NCBI GenBank assembly: GCA_964016885.1
Contig: OZ024751.1
Coordinates: 17,422,001 to 17,486,000, forward strand
Reading direction: 5' to 3'
Length of the DNA: 64,000 bases
DNA from: Eledone cirrhosa
Lineage: Eukaryota
The notes under the pieces were generated by a model, which worked only from the letters and a program-made list of their open reading frames with translations, made no database searches and had not been told where the DNA came from. The translations under genes and the position numbers were made by a program. Shown one piece after another: positions 10,598 to 60,671 of the stretch. Position 1 is the first letter of the stretch. Every line of letters begins with the position of its first letter.

Positions 10598-11024
10598 ACG
10601 TTTATCGTTTTCGGTGCACCCGGCCGATTAACCCACTCGATATGCAAATTGGGCTACTCACCCGTTAAGATGCATAAGGTAAGTATATACGTTCAACAAT
10701 CTGGCAGGAAGGTATACGTTGCTGACTATAGCTAATAAGCTTGAAACTAGTACAGCGTTCGTTTGTCAGTGTTGAACAAACGAGCAACGATGGTTGCTAG
10801 ACACTACGGCTTAATACGGGATGTTTGTTTACAAACACACCGAGCATTATAATAAATATTCGGTGAATCCATACGTACATATATATATGTGTGCATGTAT
10901 GTATATATATATATATACATACTACTGTACGTCTGTATACATATATGTATGTACGTGTACATACTTATATTTAAGTAACAGCCGTACTAAGAGTGGGAAA
11001 TGAAATGTCGTTTCATTTTTTCCG

Positions 11025-11030
<6 letters not shown>
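10598..11030 (+). mobile_element. Family M element (diverged homologue of family F), about one monomer
   Basis: Start TTTATCGTTTTCGGTGCACCCGG...TATGCAAATT and end GAAATGAAATG..TTTCATTTTTTCCGTTTTTA(TA)n align by eye with the family F monomer on the minus strand of 59683-60150. Confidence 0.65.
10716..10758 (+). ncRNA. Hammerhead ribozyme-like motif (family M, core variant CTGACTA)
   Basis: ACGTTG-CTGACTA-T-AGCT-AATA-AGCT-T-GAAA-CTAG-TA-CAGCGT. The G8 position is T, so this copy is probably inactive. Confidence 0.65.
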
Positions 11031-18991: not shown

Positions 18992-19344
18992 TTGTCTGTG
19001 TGTGTATAAAAAAAACAAGATGTCCTGCACGGATGAAAGTATAAGGAAAAGAAATCGAAAATGCAACTAGAGTTTTGTGGTTGGCTTGTTATGGTGCATT
19101 TCTTGTCTATGTTTTTGAATAAACAAATTTTCGTTATCTATTTGTATTTGGTCTGTTGTATTGTCAGTGCAAAGATAAAGTGGAAATACTTGGAATTTGG
19201 GTGTCTTATTGTTTTCACATGTCTAGATGTCCACTGAGTGGTATCTGTCTTGTGGTTGGGTCTCGTAATTCATCGTCAACAATTAATTGGACACGGTTAT
19301 ACAGCCAATTGAAAAAAAAAAATATATATATATATATATGTGTG

Positions 19345-35444: not shown

Positions 35445-35652
35445 TAAGAAAAAAAGATGAAATCGAAAATGCAACTGGACTCTTATTTAAAAAAAATATA
35501 TATATATTTACCGGTAAAGGAACCAAATAAATATATATATATTTTTTTTTAAATAAGACTCCAGTTGCATTTTCGATTTCATCTTTTTTTCTTTATACTT
35601 TCACTCGTGTAGGACACCTCGGTTATTTTTCATTTTGTAAAAAGAACCTCAC

Positions 35653-35660
<8 letters not shown>
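35445..35660 (+). mobile_element. Family E fold-back element (fragments also at about 16431-16520, 19010-19075, 23705-23735)
   Basis: GAAATCGAAAATGCAACTGG...CCAGTTGCATTTTCGATTTC hairpin. Shared 3' end TATACTTTCACTCGTGTAGGACA. Confidence 0.7.
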
Positions 35661-35721
<61 letters not shown>

Positions 35722-35726
<5 letters not shown>

Positions 35727-36033
35727 AATTAAGTTAAAAATGTACATCCACATATGTATACTGAAATACTATTATGCATATGAATACACACACGTATACA
35801 TATGTAGATGTACCGATTTTTTCACTGGTCACTTTACTGTGAGTGTCCAGCTATTCGACCAGTGAAAAACTCGGTACATCTACATATGTATACGTGTGTG
35901 TATTCATATGCATACTAGTATTTCAGTATACATATGTGGATGTACATTTTTAACTTAATTGTTTAAGCGTCAGTCATACAAAAGTGAGTTACAAACGAAA
36001 CGAAATTTAATTTCGTTTCGTTATTTGTTTTTA
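35722..36033 (+). mobile_element. Family F 3' fragment with 5' inversion
   Basis: 35722-35830 is the reverse complement of 35857-35965. Matches 59683-59885 in reverse. Confidence 0.85.
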
Positions 36034-36056
36034 TATATATATATATATATATATAT

Positions 36057-38994: not shown

Positions 38995-39779
38995 TACACA
39001 CACACACACATATATACTTTGTCTGATTTACTCGTTTTATTTACAATCCTTTAAAATTTATAATGGTATTAGAATGAAATAGTATGGTACAATATTAAAT
39101 GTTAAGGGTTAATTGAACAAGTACTTTCATGCTTTCGCAATCTTCAGTTTCATAATGTGTGGTGACAGTCGAGTTTGCAATTTTCAACTGTCTTCTATAC
39201 ACAATCATACACACCCGTGTATATTTATCTATCTATATATATACATATATATGTGTATACAAATACACACACATACACATATATATGTATATGTGTGTTT
39301 GTATGTATACATATACATATATATATATATAAATGTATGTGTGTGTTTGTGTATATATATATGTCTGTGTATATATATATATATATGTATGTATATGTAT
39401 CTGTATTTATATATCTTTGTAAACCATTATATGTTTGTATATCATTATGCTCTCGGTGGAAATTGGGAAAATCCGAGGACAAATCATGAAAAGTTATCTC
39501 TTTCCACTTCCTCCGGAATAGATCATTGCAAAATCATACAGCTTATGGAATGTTACTCTCTGTCTCCAGTATATATATATATGTATATATATATGTGTGT
39601 GGGGTGGTGTGGTGGGTGTGTTAGGTAATTCCGAAGAAGAAGCAAAGGAAAAAGAGTGTTCTATGTATATAACAGAGCTCTTTAATTAGAAAGTAAACAA
39701 CACAGTATATAACTACTCCATTGCCAAAGGTTTCTGGGTTCTGGACAATATTAGCATACGTCTAGATCGAGTTTAGTAA

Positions 39780-51536: not shown

Positions 51537-52064
51537 ATAATTTTTTCTACTTTTGGCACAAGGCCAGCAATTATCCCAGTGGTACCTTGTTTTCTCGATC
51601 TCGTAAGGATGAAAAGCAAAGTTAACCTCGGCGACATTTGAACTCAGATCATAAAGGGCCGTAACTCTTTGTGCAAAGCATGGCGTCCGACCCTCTATCG
51701 ATACTGAATGATTTCTAGTATATGCACAAGGCCAGTAATTTGGGGCGCGGAGAAAGTCAATTAAATCGACCCCAGTACATTACAGATGTTTTATTTTATC
51801 GACCCCGTAAGGATGAAAGGCAAAGTTAACCTCGGTGGAATTTGAACTCAGATCGTAAAGGGATGTAACTCCATGCTGCAAAGCATGGTGTCAGACCATC
51901 TACCGATACTGCCAATCCACCAGCCTACAGTATACATTAATAATTGTTTCTACTTTTGGCACAAGGCCAGCAATTAACCAGTGTATTACTGGTACTTTAT
52001 TTTATCGACCCCGTAAGGATGAAAGGCAAAGTTAACATTGACGGGATTTGAACTCAGACCGTAA
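51537..52064 (-). mobile_element. Three stacked SINE copies
   Basis: Separated by the repeated target ACAGT(A/T)(C/T)ACATTAATAAT at about 51524, 51927 and 52064. Confidence 0.8.
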
Positions 52065-52880
52065 CAGTTTACATTAATAATAAAATTAAGTAACGTGTAC
52101 TTATTGCCTATTGTGGTAGAGAGAAAGAACCAATCCCCAGTACTGGATTGGAACTAATGTGATATTGGTCTCTCTATATAAAGATTAGCACAAGCCCTAA
52201 CTCTTCAAAACCTATTAGGGGTCTACTTAGCATTAATCGTAGCACCGACTCTAAGAACAGTTGATTGTGTTAAGCCTTTAAGCCGTGATTCAGAGCGAGT
52301 TGGTTCCGTAGGCTAGAACATCCAGAATACATGAAATTCCAACCGAGCTATGTTTACCGTCACAAACGCCTACGTAATGCTATTATCTATGCGTATTGTG
52401 AAAAAATAAACACAGCTTCACTGTTACAGATACCTAAATATGAAATGTTACGCGATGGGTCCCCCTCCCCCCACACACACACATCCCCGGCGGACAGGAT
52501 GGAGGACGGCAAGGGAGACGCGCTGGAAAAGCCACTCCAACATCGGCGGTGAGATTGATTTCATGTGGAGAGATAGGATCAAGTTAAAAATATATTGCTT
52601 CAATGTAATGGGAAAGACACGATTCAGAGGGGACGTGAAGTCTTCTGTTGAGTGAAAGGGGAGATTTGTAGATGTGTTCAAGTTACTATAACAAGGAAAA
52701 GGAATAAATAAAGGTTGAGAGTCGGACGCTCTGTTGAGTCTGTCCAACAATGAAGCGAGAGGGAACGACTGACAGCAATTACGATAATGTCATTATGCGA
52801 AGATAGTTAAATTAAACGCACTTGTCATCACTAAATCTCAACTTATTAATCCGTTGGTAGACAACGTTTATCCTTCAAAT

Positions 52881-52882
<2 letters not shown>

Positions 52883-52930
<48 letters not shown>

Positions 52931-52933
52931 TAC

Positions 52934-53016
<83 letters not shown>

Positions 53017-53064
53017 ATAGCAGTAGTGGTAGTAATAGTAGTAGTAGTTGTAGCAGTAGTAGTG

Positions 53065-53141
<77 letters not shown>

Positions 53142-53148
53142 TGTAGTA
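52883..53148 (+). repeat. Compound trinucleotide microsatellite (ATT)n-(AGT)n
   Basis: Direct reading. Confidence 0.95.
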
Positions 53149-53289
53149 AACTAAATTAATAGCAACAATAACAATATCTATAATCTATATAATAGCCAGT
53201 GTGGGCTGGTTACTTGATTGCCGGTCGGCTGGGAGGAAAGACAATGTACAAGAGAGATGGTGGTGAGAAATATAGAGTGTGAGAGACAG

Positions 53290-56200
53290 AAAGATAAATG
53301 AGAGAGAAAGATGAAGGAGAGAGAAAGATAAAGGAGAGAGAAAGATGAAGGAGAGAGAAAGATGAAGGAGAGAGAAAGATAAAGGAGAGAGAAAGATGAA
53401 GGAGAGAGAAAGATGCAGGAGAGAGAAAGATAAAGGAGAGAGAAAGCTGAACGAGAGAGAAAGATAAAGGAGAGAGAAAGATGAACGAGAGAGAAAGATG
53501 AACGAGAGAGAAAGATGAACGAGGGAGAATGATGAACGATAGAGAAAGATGAACGATAGAGAATGATGAACGAGAGAGAAAGATGAACGAGAGAGAAAGA
53601 TGAACGAGGGAGAATGATGAACGAGAGAGAAAGATGAACGATAGAGAAAGATGAACGATAGAGAAATATGAACGAGAGAGAAAGATGAACGAGAGAGAAA
53701 GATGAACGAGAGAGAAAGATGAACCAGAGAGAAAGATGAAGGAGAGAGAAACATGAATGAGAGAGAAAGATGAACGAGGGAGAAAGATGAAGGAGAGAGA
53801 AAGATGAAGGAGAGAGAACGATGAACGAGAGAGAACGATGAACGAGAGAGAAAGATGAACGAGAGAGAAAGATGAACGAGAGAGAAAGATGAACGAGAGA
53901 GAAAGATTAATGAGAGAGAAAGATGAACGAGAGAGAAAGATGAATGAGTGAGAAGGATGAACGATAGAGGAAGATGAGCCAGAGAGAGAAAGATGAACGA
54001 TAGAGAAAGATGAATGAGGGAGAATGATGAATGAGAGAGAAAGATGAACGAGAGAGAAAGATGAACGAGGGAGAAAGATGAAACAGAGAGAAAGATGAAC
54101 GAGGGAGAAAGATGAACGAGAACGAAAGATGAACGATAGAGAAATATGAACCAGAGAGAAAGATGAACGAGAGAGAAAGATGAACGAGAGAGAAAGATTA
54201 ACGATACAGAAAGATGAAAGAGAGAGAAAGATGAACGAGACAGAAAGATGAACCAGAGAGAAAGATGAACGAGAGAGAAAGATGAATGAGAGAGAAATAT
54301 GAACGAGGGAGAATGATGAACGAGGGAGAAAGTTGAACGAGAGAGAAAGATGAACGATAGAGAAAGATGAACCACAGAGAAAGATGAACCACAGAGAAAG
54401 ATGAACGAGAGAGAAAGATGAACGAGAGAGAAAGATGAACCAGAGAGAAAGATAAACGAGAGAGAAAGATGAATGAGACGGAAAGATGAACCAGAGAGAA
54501 AGATAAACGAGAGAGAAAGATGAACGAGAGAGAAAGATGAACGAGAGAGAATGATGCATGAGAGAGAGAGATGAACGAGAGAGAAAGATGAAAGAGAGAG
54601 AAATATGAACGAGGGAGAAAGTTGAATGAGAGAGAAAGAGGAACGAGAGAGAATGATGAATGAGAGAGAAAGATGAACGAGAGAGAATGATGAACGAGGG
54701 AGAAAGATGAACGAGGGAGAAAGATGAACGAGAGAGAAAGATGAATGAGGGAGAAAGATGAACGAGAGAGAATGATGAACGAGAGAGATATATGAACGAG
54801 AGAGAAAGATGAGCGAGAGAGAATGATGAACGAGAGAGAAAGATGAACGAGAGAGATATATGAACGAGAGAGAAAGATGAACGAGAGAGATATATGAACG
54901 AGAGAGAAAGATGAACGAGAGAGACATATGAACGAGGGAGAAAGATGAACGAGAGAGATATATGAACGAGGAAGAAAGATCAACGAGAGAGACATATGAA
55001 CGAGAGAGAAAGATGAACGAGAGAGAAAGATGAACGAGAGAGAAAGATGAACGAGAGAGAAAGATTAACGAGAGAGAAAGATGAATGAGAGAGAAAGATG
55101 AACCAGGGAGAAAGATGAACGAGAGAGAAAGATGAACGAGAGAGAATGATGAATGAGAGAGAAAGATGAACGAGAGAGAAAGATGAAAGAGAGAGAAATA
55201 TGAACGAGGGTGAAAGTTGAATGAGAGAGAAAGAGGAACGAGAGAGAATGATGAATGAGAGAGAAAGATGAACGAGAGAGAATGATGAATGAGAGAGAAA
55301 GATGAACGAGAGAGAAAGATGAAAGAGAGAGAAATATGAACGAGGGTGAAAGTTGAATGAGAGAGAAAGAGGAACGAGAGAGAATGATGAATGAGGGAGA
55401 AAGATGAACGAGAGGGAAAGATGAATGAGAGAGAAAGATGAACGAGAGAGAATGATGAACGAGAGAGATATATGAACGAGAGAGAAAGATGAACGAGAGA
55501 GATATATGAACGAGAGAGAAAGATGAACGAGAGAGATATATGAACGAGAGAGAAAGATGAACGAGAGAGACATATGAACGAGGGAGAAAGATAAACGAGA
55601 GAGATATATGAACGAGGGAGAAAGATCAACGAGAGAGAAAGATGAACGAGAGAGAAAGATGAACGAGAGAGAAGGATGAACGAGAGAGAAAGATGAACGA
55701 GAGAGAAAGATGAACGAGAGAGAAAGATGAACCAGAGAGAAAGATGAATGAAAGAGAAAGATGAATGAGAGAGAAAGATGAACGAGAGAGAAAGATGAAT
55801 GAGAGAGAAAGATGAACGAGATAGAAAGATGAACGAGAGAGAAAGATGAACGAGAGAGAAAGATGAACGAGAGAGATATATGAATGAGAGAGAAAGATCA
55901 ACGAGAGAGAAAGATGAACGAGAGAGAAAGATGAACGAGAGAGAAAGATGAACGAGAGAGAAAGATGAATGCGAGAGAAAGATGAACGAGAGAGAAAGTT
56001 GAACGAGAGAGAAAGATGAACGAGGGAGAAAGATGAACGAGAGAGAAAGATGAACGAGAGAGAAAGATGAACGAGGGAGACAGATGAACGAGAGAGAAAG
56101 ATGAACAAGAGAGAAAGATGAACCAGAGAGAAAGATGAACGAGGGAGAAAGATGAACGGGAGAGAAAGATGAACCAGAGAGAAAGATGAACGAGAGAGAA

Positions 56201-58352
56201 AGATGAACGAGAGAGAAAGATGAACCAGAGAGAAAGATGAACGATAGAGAAAGATGAACCACAGAGAAAGATGAACCACAGAGAAAGATGAACGAGAGAG
56301 AAAGATGAACGAGAGAGAAAGATGAACCAGAGAGAAAGATAAACGAGAGAGAAAGATGAATGAGACGGAAAGATGAACCAGAGAGAAAGATAAACGAGAG
56401 AGAAAGATGAACGAGAGAGAAAGATGAACGAGAGAGAATGATGCATGAGAGAGAGAGATGAACGAGAGAGAAAGATGAAAGAGAGAGAAATATGAACGAG
56501 GGAGAAAGTTGAATGAGAGAGAAAGAGGAACGAGAGAGAATGATGAATGAGAGAGAAAGATGAACGAGAGAGAATGATGAACGAGGGAGAAAGATGAACG
56601 AGGGAGAAAGATGAACGAGAGAGAAAGATGAATGAGGGAGAAAGATGAACGAGAGAGAATGATGAACGAGAGAGATATATGAACGAGAGAGAAAGATGAA
56701 CGAGAGAGAATGATGAACGAGAGAGAAAGATGAACGAGAGAGATATATGAACGAGAGAGAAAGATGAACGAGAGAGATATATGAACGAGAGAGAAAGATG
56801 AACGAGAGAGACATATGAACGAGGGAGAAAGATGAACGAGAGAGATATATGAACGAGGAAGAAAGATCAACGAGAGAGACATATGAACGAGAGAGAAAGA
56901 TGAACGAGAGAGAAAGATGAACGAGAGAGAAAGATGAACGAGAGAGAAAGATTAACGAGAGAGAAAGATGAATGAGAGAGAAAGATGAACCAGGGAGAAA
57001 GATGAACGAGAGAGAAAGATGAACGAGAGAGAATGATGAATGAGAGAGAAAGATGAACGAGAGAGAAAGATGAAAGAGAGAGAAATATGAACGAGGGTGA
57101 AAGTTGAATGAGAGAGAAAGAGGAACGAGAGAGAATGATGAATGAGAGAGAAAGATGAACGAGAGAGAATGATGAATGAGAGAGAAAGATGAACGAGAGA
57201 GAAAGATGAAAGAGAGAGAAATATGAACGAGGGTGAAAGTTGAATGAGAGAGAAAGAGGAACGAGAGAGAATGATGAATGAGGGAGAAAGATGAACGAGA
57301 GGGAAAGATGAATGAGAGAGAAAGATGAACGAGAGAGAATGATGAACGAGAGAGATATATGAACGAGAGAGAAAGATGAACGAGAGAGATATATGAACGA
57401 GAGAGAAAGATGAACGAGAGAGATATATGAACGAGAGAGAAAGATGAACGAGAGAGACATATGAACGAGGGAGAAAGATAAACGAGAGAGATATATGAAC
57501 GAGGGAGAAAGATCAACGAGAGAGAAAGATGAACGAGAGAGAAAGATGAACGAGAGAGAAGGATGAACGAGAGAGAAAGATGAACGAGAGAGAAAGATGA
57601 ACGAGAGAGAAAGATGAACCAGAGAGAAAGATGAATGAAAGAGAAAGATGAATGAGAGAGAAAGATGAACGAGAGAGAAAGATGAATGAGAGAGAAAGAT
57701 GAACGAGATAGAAAGATGAACGAGAGAGAAAGATGAACGAGAGAGAAAGATGAACGAGAGAGATATATGAATGAGAGAGAAAGATCAACGAGAGAGAAAG
57801 ATGAACGAGAGAGAAAGATGAACGAGAGAGAAAGATGAACGAGAGAGAAAGATGAATGCGAGAGAAAGATGAACGAGAGAGAAAGTTGAACGAGAGAGAA
57901 AGATGAACGAGGGAGAAAGATGAACGAGAGAGAAAGATGAACGAGAGAGAAAGATGAACGAGGGAGACAGATGAACGAGAGAGAAAGATGAACAAGAGAG
58001 AAAGATGAACCAGAGAGAAAGATGAACGAGGGAGAAAGATGAACGGGAGAGAAAGATGAACCAGAGAGAAAGATGAACGAGAGAGAAAGATGAACGAGAG
58101 AGAAAGATGAACCAGAGAGAAAGATGAACGATAGAGAAAGATGAACCAGAGAGAAAGATGAACGATAGAGAAAGATGAACCAGAGAGAAAGATGAACCAG
58201 AGAGAAAGATGAACGATAGAGAATGATGAACCAGAGAGAAAGATGAACGATAGAGAAAGATGAACCAGAGAGAAAGATGAATCAGAGAGAAAGATGAACG
58301 ATAGAGATAGATGAACCAGAGAGAAAGATGAACAAGAGAGAAAGATGAACGA
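53290..58352 (+). repeat. 17-bp purine-rich satellite (GAACGAGAGAGAAAGAT)n with 1887-bp higher-order repeat
   Basis: The monomer is visible throughout. Matching ORF-track ends are offset by 1887 bp = 111 x 17 (54995/56882, 55573/57460, 54559/56446, 55626/57513). Confidence 0.95.
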
Positions 58353-59634
58353 TGTATGTATATGTGCCTTTGAGAAAAGCTTCTAAATTGATAAAGAATT
58401 GAATATATATTCAATTCTTTATCAATTTAGAATCTTTTCTCAAAGGCACATATACATACACCTCTTTAAAATATACCCATCTTCCTACCTTACGTTAAAG
58501 GGCATTATACACTCTATAATACTTGTTTACTCATTACCCTCTTTCTATCTTCACCTTGTAAAATCCTTCATAACATATACATTTGTTTTTTTGACGTTAG
58601 AATATTCATCCGCAATCATTATTATTTTTTCTCTCTATCATAAAACTTTTTAATCTCAATTTCATCCTTAATTTATTATTTTTTTCTCCCCATCAACGAA
58701 CTCATTCTTAATACATATTGACTCTTTATTCGCATATATTATCAATTCCTTCAATATACAAACTTTAACTTCACATTATTTTTCTCAAATCCTTCTACAC
58801 ACAAACCTTAATATTTTTCTCTTCGTTAATTTTGAAATTGCCACAATACTTATCAACATACACTTTTTTTGACGTTAGAATATTCATCCACAATTATTAT
58901 TTTTTCTCTCTATCTTCATACATAAATTCCCTTCGTTAATTTTCAAATTCCTTTAATTTATACATTATCTTCCAACGGTTCTCAACCTCTCTATGTAAAA
59001 CAATATAACTTTTTCTCAGTTATAAAAACTATCTCTTTCTCTCTATCACCCATCTCTCCCTCTCCACCTTCACTCTCATCTCCTCCCCCTTTTTTCATCC
59101 TTTCCACCCCCCCCCCTCCCTAAATAAAATATTTTTTCCTCGCACATATCCTCCCTTCGTTAATTTTCAAATTATTTTAGTTTATACATTATCTTCCAAC
59201 GGTTTTCAATCTCTCTATGTAAAACAATATATCTCCTCTCAGTTATAAAAACTATCTCTTTCTCTCTATCACCTATCTCTCCCTCTCATCTCCTCCCCTT
59301 TTTCATCCTTTCCACCCCCCCCCCTCTCTAAATAAAATATTTTTCCCAATATCACACATCAATCTAAAACCACTTTTCATATGTTGATTTAAAACTGCAC
59401 TATCCACAAGTGTTTTTTAGCCTTCATATCATGTTCTCCGGTTTTATCTGATGAAAACACAAATATTATTGCATGATGATGTTTGTTTTTGAAATGCGCA
59501 TAATAAAATACATGGAACTCCTTTAACCATCGTTTGATCTTATATTATGCATACTCCAGTCCTACAAACTGTAGAGTGCTTCTTATCCGATATCTGCATT
59601 GCTTTATTGTACTACAATAAAACTCACCTCCTAC

Positions 59635-59637
<3 letters not shown>
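58353..59637 (+). mobile_element. Longest family A element: 5' hairpin, non-coding body, hammerhead (59442-59508), (TA)n
   Basis: 108-bp near-perfect palindrome 58353-58460. T-rich body with an internal duplication (about 58929-59138 / 59153-59345). 59351-59637 matches 1817-2102. Confidence 0.7.
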
Positions 59638-59682
<45 letters not shown>

Positions 59683-59688
<6 letters not shown>

Positions 59689-60614
59689 CAAATAACGAAA
59701 CGAAATTAAATTTCGTTTCGTTTGTAACTCACGTTTGTATGACTGACGCTTAAACAATTAAGTTAAAAATGTACATCCACATATGTATACTGAAATACTA
59801 GTATGCATATGAATACACACACGTGTACATATGTAGATGTACCGAGTTTTTCACTGGTCACTTTACTGTGAGTGTCCAGCTATTATGTATGTAAATACAC
59901 AGACAAATCGGTTTTTAGAGTCATACTGGTTTTTGAGGAAACACCTTTCCTCTATTCTCCAGAAAGCCAGACAAGGAATATTGGACTAGTTTCGATGTTG
60001 TTACATCTCATCAGCAATATTTACCTATCTTCCGGCCTTTCTAGAGAATCGTAAAAGCACATATCGTTATATGCTTTTTCTATGAAAATTAGTAGTGGGC
60101 AGAATAATTTGCATAGAGCGTGAGTACGTACCGGTTCAACGGAGACGATAAAAACAAATAACGAAACGAAATTAAATTTCGTTTCGTTTGTAACTCACTT
60201 TTGTATGACTGACGCTTAAACAATTAAGTTAAAAATGTACATCCACATATGTATACTGAAATACTAGTATGCATATGAATACACACACGTGTACATATGT
60301 AGATGTACCGAGTTTTTCACTGGTCACTTTACTGTGAGTGTCCAGCTATTCTGTATGTAAACACACAGACAAACCGGTTTTTAGAGTCATACTGGTTTTT
60401 GAGGAAACACCTTTCCTCTATTCTCCAGAAAGCCAGACAAGGAATATTGGTATGACTCTAAAAACCGGTTTGTCTGTGTGTTTACATACAGAATAGCTGG
60501 ACACTCACATTAAAACGACCAGTGAAAAACTCGGTACATCTACATATGTACACGTGTGTGTATTCATATGCATACTAGTATTTCAGTATACATATGTGGA
60601 TGTACATTTTTAAC

Positions 60615-60620
<6 letters not shown>
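59683..60620 (-). mobile_element. Family F retrozyme-like element: 466-nt unit, ~300-bp direct repeat, 5' inversion
   Basis: 59683-59983 is repeated at 60149-60449 (offset 466). 60450-60620 is an inverted copy. (TA)n on both sides. Confidence 0.9.
59977..60021 (-). ncRNA. Canonical minimal type I hammerhead ribozyme (family F)
   Basis: Minus strand: AATATTG-CTGATGA-GATG-taacaa-CATC-GAAA-CTAG-TC-CAATATT. Perfect 7-bp stem I, G10.1-C11.1 stem II, palindromic stem III ACTAGT, GUC triplet. Confidence 0.92.

Positions 60621-60667
<47 letters not shown>

Positions 60668-60671
<4 letters not shown>

Follow-up and report, generated by a model that had tools for sequence, protein, structure and literature searches.

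An abundant, non-coding, 466-nt hammerhead repeat was identified in the Eledone cirrhosa genome, and its insertions take the form of head-to-head arms with two fixed ends. These insertions probably arise when a Penelope-type reverse transcriptase (RT)/endonuclease primes on one RNA, itself probably circular, at both nicks of a single (TA)n break, and we hold this reading with reasonable confidence. Visible in the sequence are the family, its two fixed outer ends, the pairing of a long with a short end, scattered inner junctions, near-identical arms, target duplications at some sites, the same end rule in Penelope-like elements and one junction with the Penelope-like family PLE-A. The window (the whole stretch of 64,000 nucleotides analyzed here) contains a real, young-looking copy of this retrozyme family. 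The class is already known, and the insertion footprint makes the mechanism testable.

The window copy and its family

Read along the minus strand, the window copy passes from (TA)n into an inverted 171-nt piece, then a 466-nt unit, then another 302 nt of unit, and ends in (TA)n. The long-end arm (59682..60449, minus strand) comprises one full unit plus unit positions 1-302 and stops at the long site of the family (302), an end with 2,132 exact matches genome-wide. The inverted short-end arm (60450..60620, plus strand) corresponds to unit positions 58-228 with 3 mismatches and stops at the short site (228-233), for which 779 forward-strand matches were found in the genome. The (TA)n target, read from the sequence, occupies 59637..59681 on the long-end side and 60621..60668 on the short-end side. 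A "tail" of ~70-74 nt (59682..59755, minus strand), which includes a 13-bp hairpin at 59722-59694, separates the short from the long site. The sequence CAATATTCC occurs at 60449 and again at 59983, a spacing of 466 nt; the direct repeat of 302 nt has 4 mismatches between its copies, and the element holds a single complete hammerhead. The arms meet head to head at 60450, where they share 1 nt and where the cut of the long arm is predicted. The differences between the inverted arm and the long arm are clustered at unit positions 118, 123 and 124 (the region of window positions 60514-60520), and the two arms are less alike than the arm pairs of most insertions.

The first-pass annotation of this locus had described the same anatomy (hammerhead, 466-nt distance from cut to repeat, direct repeat, inverted arm and (TA)n), and its coordinates hold. 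It had also placed the start of the upstream repeat exactly at the first base after the GUC cut. This is correct to within 1 nt but not exact, since base 60450 is compatible with both arms and the start is therefore either the cut site or 1 base upstream. The spacer of about 125 bp that it had called unique is present but forms part of the family unit. As for the reported lack of open reading frames, no ATG ORF longer than 50 aa lies within the element, but one 68-aa frame enters it from the flank through the TA run. None of the contigs listed from public sequencing runs X1-X3 bridges the inversion junction, which therefore rests on the assembly and on the identical layout at dozens of loci. 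The window also contains a second copy in (TA)n, at 35722..36034, in which a short-end arm (unit 233 to 99) is joined head to head with a long-end arm (125 to 302) and which has no hammerhead.

The hammerhead core of the window copy (60014-59984, minus strand) consists of CUGAUGA, a 5-bp stem II, GAAA, a palindromic ACUAGU stem III and GUC. Stem I pairs 60021-60015 with 59983-59977, and the cut is predicted between 59984 and 59983. With its extended, bulged stem I, the type I motif (59961..60032, minus strand) aligned to Rfam HH9 over 60032-59961 with 38.9 bits (E 3.5e-7 in 9 kb), a match that lies below the gathering score of 52. The motif had been called minimal, a class defined by the absence of helix III, a long helix II and a short helix I (PMC4209133). 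It has instead the ACUAGU helix III, a helix II of 5 bp and a helix I of 7 bp with an extension, and the predicted ribozyme fits the "canonical" metazoan type I of that paper, not its helix-III-less minimal class. The 466-nt monomer between predicted cuts (59984..60449, minus strand) is predicted to form a multibranched RNA, with a fold z of -9.64 and 0 of 100 shuffles equally good. Across 14 unit variants, 98.3% of cells are paired and 6 of 152 pairs changed on both sides, counts that overstate the independent events because the variants are related and the changes partly inherited. A large subfamily carries a compensatory replacement of the A-U pair of stem II by U-A. Rfam microRNA matches in the window were discarded as (TA)n noise.

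Single-base indels were observed precisely at the predicted cut/ligation point, with an extra C at loci L111, L113, L241 and L242 and one base fewer at L106 and L115. With no matched control available for them, scars of ligation and slippage within CC are both possible sources; the accessible part of PMC4918200 contains nothing on extra bases at the junction.

A 20-nt pattern spanning the hammerhead junction gave 9,353 exact matches in the 3.0-Gb assembly, and the reversed control gave 0. The junction triplet is GUC in 3,233 of these and hence GUU in 6,120. GUU is a weaker cleavage triplet, and its share of the junctions counts against a reading in which cleavage, here predicted, supplies the template. 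Units are 461-479 nt long and arrays reach 30 full units. Each family unit carries a type I hammerhead, and the non-coding tandem units (466-470 nt) fall within the retrozyme range of ~150-1000 nt; the insertion ends are unequal and the layout is tRNA-independent. A second repeat family, of ~490 nt, is 65% alike over a 257-column stretch and retains a similar fold and the hammerhead. One of its units, with a GUA triplet, lies between (TA)n runs at window positions 10602-11029 (plus strand), and tandem copies are found at L126 (8000-9900). Close variants of the unit (~96-98% alike) were seen in runs X4, X5 and X6 from three other organisms. X4 yielded one 495-nt contig that closes on itself after 465 and X5 one 496-nt contig, a shape that tandem DNA yields as well. 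Amongst the sequencing runs listed as carrying the unit, none was an RNA run. Additionally, the window holds an extended, purine-skewed tandem array that repeats every 17 nt (~52000-58450) and a dispersed repeat present at least five times (1913, 12300, 38268, 38394 and 59448), one copy of which lies just outside the long-end (TA)n.

Two fixed outer ends, one per arm

The outer ends of insertions are unit 3' ends that abut (TA)n at unit position 302 or 228-233, rarely at 346. Amongst 111 complete insertions, 82 paired a long with a short end, 2 had two short ends (both consisting of 3-4 pieces), 18 had one recognized end and 9 were of other kinds, while family pairs of two long ends numbered 0. 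This tally includes 36 loci fetched as already-listed long+short pairs, the other 75 loci giving 47 such pairs; it also includes weak short-arm calls (L177, L192 and L198), duplicates (L174/L175) and one mis-grouped locus (L150). At the level of the match list for C1, 42 of 45 outward pairs were long+short. The lone long+long pair in that list proved to be two separate insertions (L067). At least two of its long+short pairs are likewise not single insertions (L218 and L234/L235), so the sequence-level tally of 82/111 is preferred. Both window copies obey the rule, with ends at 302 and 228 (59682-60620) and at 233 and 302 (35722-36034). Head-to-head arm pairs whose outer ends lie at two fixed sites, one per arm, are a trait of the family.

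In 63 clean two-arm insertions, the inner junctions are scattered and the arms overlap by 0-9 nt in most cases; in 8 of them (4.2 expected) the long arm has its inner end no more than 15 nt from the short site. Outer flanks were (TA)n-like in 220 of 272 cases, and direct target duplications of variable length (~13-45 bp) were found at L247, L188, L061, L113 and L107. The family thereby displays the hallmarks of Penelope mobilization, namely a tail at one end, an inverted truncated copy and a microsatellite target. At L176 (707-800), and also at L057 and L136, an inverted copy of the DNA flanking (TA)n replaces the second arm, and these loci look as if the second target end had primed on itself. 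No description of two-armed or circle-primed retrozyme insertions with one site per arm was found in the literature covered, which took in few subscription papers; the supplements of 10.64898/2026.07.22.740005 and PMC7229834 may show insertion structures.

A sequence of steps that would produce this layout can be proposed. Tandem transcripts would be cut by the predicted hammerhead, probably as dimers, and then ligated into monomer circles. A dimeric Penelope-type protein would bind the tail structure and nick both target strands, with one cDNA beginning at 302 and the other at 228-233. Each cDNA would travel round the template over a variable distance by rolling copying, and the two cDNA ends would then be joined through an overlap of 0-9 nt. 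The ribozyme would make the template, and the ends of the insert would not be set by it. We give roughly even chances to a more far-reaching version, in which a dimeric Penelope-type enzyme would grip one RNA circle at its structured tail, give each nick its own start site and run two RTs round the circle at once. Retrozymes would then be a self-evolving lineage of RNA circles without driver sequence, and programmed double priming would be the origin, in all Penelope elements, of inverted copies and of tails confined to one side.

The copied template and competing explanations

Within an insertion the arms differed by 0.8%, as compared to 4.8% between insertions (54 of the 63 were testable; p 1.6e-10), which points to one template for both. 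In 18 of 63 insertions each arm is longer than one unit, and in 58 of 63 the long arm runs past the short site, so a linear RNA is not shared out between the two arms as it would be in twin priming. All full units in the two arms were identical at L070/L071 (18 of 18) and at L230 (6 of 6). The 468-nt variant to which L070/L071 belong was found at 7 loci (69 matches), each with its own junction, and 58 of its 65 full units were identical. The longest insertion, also of this variant, has arms of 17.6 and 8.1 units (25.7 in total), and the assembly contains no longer source array with the 468-nt marker.

Base changes lend some support to a passage through RNA. Amongst changes common to all units of an insertion, A>G outnumbered T>C by 39 to 15 (p 0.0009), and by 31 to 14 when distinct sites were counted (p 0.011), with singletons at 49 versus 71. 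For private changes the numbers were 12 versus 8 and for changes present in both arms 17 versus 11, neither of which is significant. At L150, 11 A>G changes recur in its 2-3 units, and this haplotype is found nowhere else in the genome.

The same double priming by a Penelope-type enzyme could also have taken place on linear RNA, either read-through transcripts of arrays or cut monomers with repeated template jumps, with long arrays growing later by DNA-level duplication. We regard this as the strongest competitor, yet an unlikely one. It draws on L107, which consists of two tandem pieces running from 1 to 232/233 plus a long arm that goes no further than the short site, and on loci where copying appears to have moved between different RNAs. 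Two variants are mixed in one insertion at L009. At L146 (1175-1995), a short-end arm is joined, without TA, to a second-family unit in the same orientation, which is likely a template switch between two retrozyme RNAs. Older arrays (C1 at 5.74 Mb, L058, L215 and L239) carry shared, locally periodic variants, indicating that DNA-level duplication also lengthens arrays. Young arrays could have been lengthened in the same way, and assembly polishing could even out units. Linear templates are further consistent with the in vitro finding that hammerhead cleavage is dispensable for the anole element (PMC11167929). Against them stand the overlapping multi-unit arms derived from a single template, the identical private A>G set in consecutive units of L150, the lack of an array long enough to be the source of the 25.7-unit insertion, and singleton changes that show no A>G excess. 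Altogether, repeated copying of one probably circular RNA remains the reading that we prefer.

Much less probable is the proposal of the first-pass annotation that reverse transcription ran off at the ribozyme-cut 5' end and that the cDNA folded back to give the inverted arm. The pile-up of 5' ends at the cleavage site on which this proposal had been staked was looked for genome-wide with break patterns that forced two mismatches just upstream of the tested unit position. Raw matches at the cut site numbered 15 (12 + 3), and at control positions 354 and 385 they numbered 14 and 10. After the loci were read one by one, 6 insertions were left at the cut site, as against 13 and 5-6 at the controls. 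Amongst the 126 inner ends of the 63 clean insertions, the window copy included, 6 lie within 3 nt of the cut with 1.9 expected; a slight excess near the cut is possible, and ~95% end elsewhere. The pile-up is absent, which refutes the proposal as a rule for the family, and a start where the cut is predicted is atypical of its members.

Fold-back is also not favored because it predicts no fixed outer end for the inverted arm, which in fact terminates at a fixed priming site. Furthermore, in 25 of 63 insertions the short-end arm exceeds the other in length, and the overlap at the window junction is just 1 nt. Self-priming has been proposed for inverted Penelope ends (PMC3846280), and the start of the window copy within 1 nt of the cut would have a chance of ~0.9% for one insertion, but this copy was singled out for that coincidence from thousands. 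For the window copy alone, run-off on a cut RNA is possible, and L107 shows that such a route exists. The coincidence with the cut site is not the informative feature of this copy.

The least credible explanation is a repeat at the DNA level (a minisatellite or an inverted-repeat transposon), or an artefact of assembly, in which the hammerhead would be incidental. In its favor, inverted ends and (TA)n targets would suit DNA transposons too, and the listed contigs leave the window junction unbridged. Against it, the two ends are unequal (228-233 versus 302), inner junctions fall at random, the length of the target duplications is variable, stem II shows covariation, A>G changes are strand-biased and the same layout recurs at 82 loci.

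A candidate Penelope-type driver and comparison with known systems

The identification as a retrozyme-like element with a (TA)n target, mobilized in trans by a Penelope-type enzyme and probably from a circular template, was supported by the analysis. The unit is not itself an autonomous Penelope-like element, as it has no RT + GIY-YIG ORF. A search for an autonomous element sharing its 3' end had been suggested, and RT + GIY-YIG frames do exist in the genome, with the CX5CxxC linker given for the Neptune and Nematis clades (PMC8557442). From 10,596 candidates, 150 were scored, and 50 GIY-YIG loci were compared with the unit; amongst these 50 no pLTR with clear sequence likeness to the unit was found, and the matches were weak and AT-rich.

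Several Penelope-like families have hammerhead motifs near their 3' ends and termini in (TA)n. Near the 3' ends of L116/L117, L088, L075 and PLE-A there are hammerhead-like motifs in which a U3/A8 core (TTGAAAA or TTGATAA) is combined with CCGG as stem III. Within the window, the L116/L117 family is represented by a GIY-YIG remnant at 19106-19304 and by a 3' end at 35560-35660, directly after which the second retrozyme copy sits in (TA)n. A two-armed pLTR remnant of another hammerhead-bearing Penelope-like family (L119/L129 type), in which an inverted tail piece is joined to a forward piece, lies between TA-rich flanks at 39015-39250.

The best candidate for the driver is PLE-A, a Neptune/Nematis-like family. 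Its tail measures 41 nt, its ends were matched 10,545 times, and of 6 outward pairs read by eye 5 were long+short. The four PLE-A copies examined are broken; an uninterrupted Penelope-like frame, of 938 aa, is found at L116. At L164, a retrozyme long arm of 2.7 units leads through 40 nt of unit directly into 2.4 kb of PLE-A, with no TA in between; the PLE-A part stops at its own short site and no retrozyme remainder lies beyond. At L189, a retrozyme long end is joined to a PLE-A long end, which breaks the pairing rule. L164 fits co-integration and L189 is ambiguous, with nesting possible since PLE-A is abundant. Weighing against double priming on a circle are the defiance of the end rule at L189, the pointer to linear cut monomers at L107, the mixed variants of L009 and the lack of pLTR likeness.

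Retrozymes and the Penelope tail are both already published. For metazoan non-LTR retrozymes, RNA circles have been demonstrated in coral, mussel and axolotl and mobilization by Penelope elements has been proposed (Cervera and de la Pena 2020, PMC7229834), whereas the present family is known from genome sequence. The family resembles them, as far as the accessible descriptions go, in having non-coding tandem units of a few hundred nt, each with a single type I hammerhead, a low GC content and a highly paired fold, in being present in thousands of copies and in sharing the genome with Penelope-like elements. It differs from them in forming head-to-head pairs with two fixed ends, where head-to-tail repeats have been published. 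Circle templates were already proposed in PMC4209133, and copying of circles by a Penelope enzyme is likewise a proposal in the retrozyme literature covered, to which the family adds a direct retrozyme-Penelope junction. In frogs (Li, Clavereau and Pollet 2026, preprint, 10.64898/2026.07.22.740005), retrozymes co-occur with Penelope-like elements and share pLTR homology with them, unlike the present unit in the 50 GIY-YIG loci compared. Of the 9 retrozyme dimers predicted there for Xenopus, 8 failed to cleave, which counts against the favored reading.

With EN+ Penelope-like elements (Craig et al. 2021, PMC8557442; Arkhipova et al. 2013, PMC3846280), the family shares an inverted 5'-truncated copy, a tail often at one end, a preference for (TA)n and variable target duplication. 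Unlike these elements as they are described there, it has no ORF, its tail measures ~70-74 nt versus 30-40, and both its arms can reach 7-18 units. A biochemical parallel is the purified Penelope-like protein of anole Poseidon (Frangieh et al. 2024, PMC11167929), a predicted dimer. In vitro it cuts and extends both target strands, with initiation at two internal sites that delimit the tail, and RNA ends at the hammerhead site were absent. In that assay the start site did not differ between the strands, which counts against the favored reading, and target homology was absent. In the present family each arm has its own site, and the two AT-rich sites continue into the TA flank.

The literature covered leaves two questions open: by what route Penelope-like elements come to have inverted copies and tails at one side, and whether circles serve as the templates of retrozymes. 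Both are testable with one short RNA and one protein, since the family offers insertion footprints in the thousands, precise start sites (228-233 and 302), a variant of young age, an apparently edited template that was copied repeatedly and a candidate enzyme. The family is also comparable to the twin priming of L1, in which two primers act on one RNA and microhomology seals the resulting inversion. The L1 arms divide a linear RNA between them and their second site varies, whereas here the arms overlap and repeat, and both sites are fixed.
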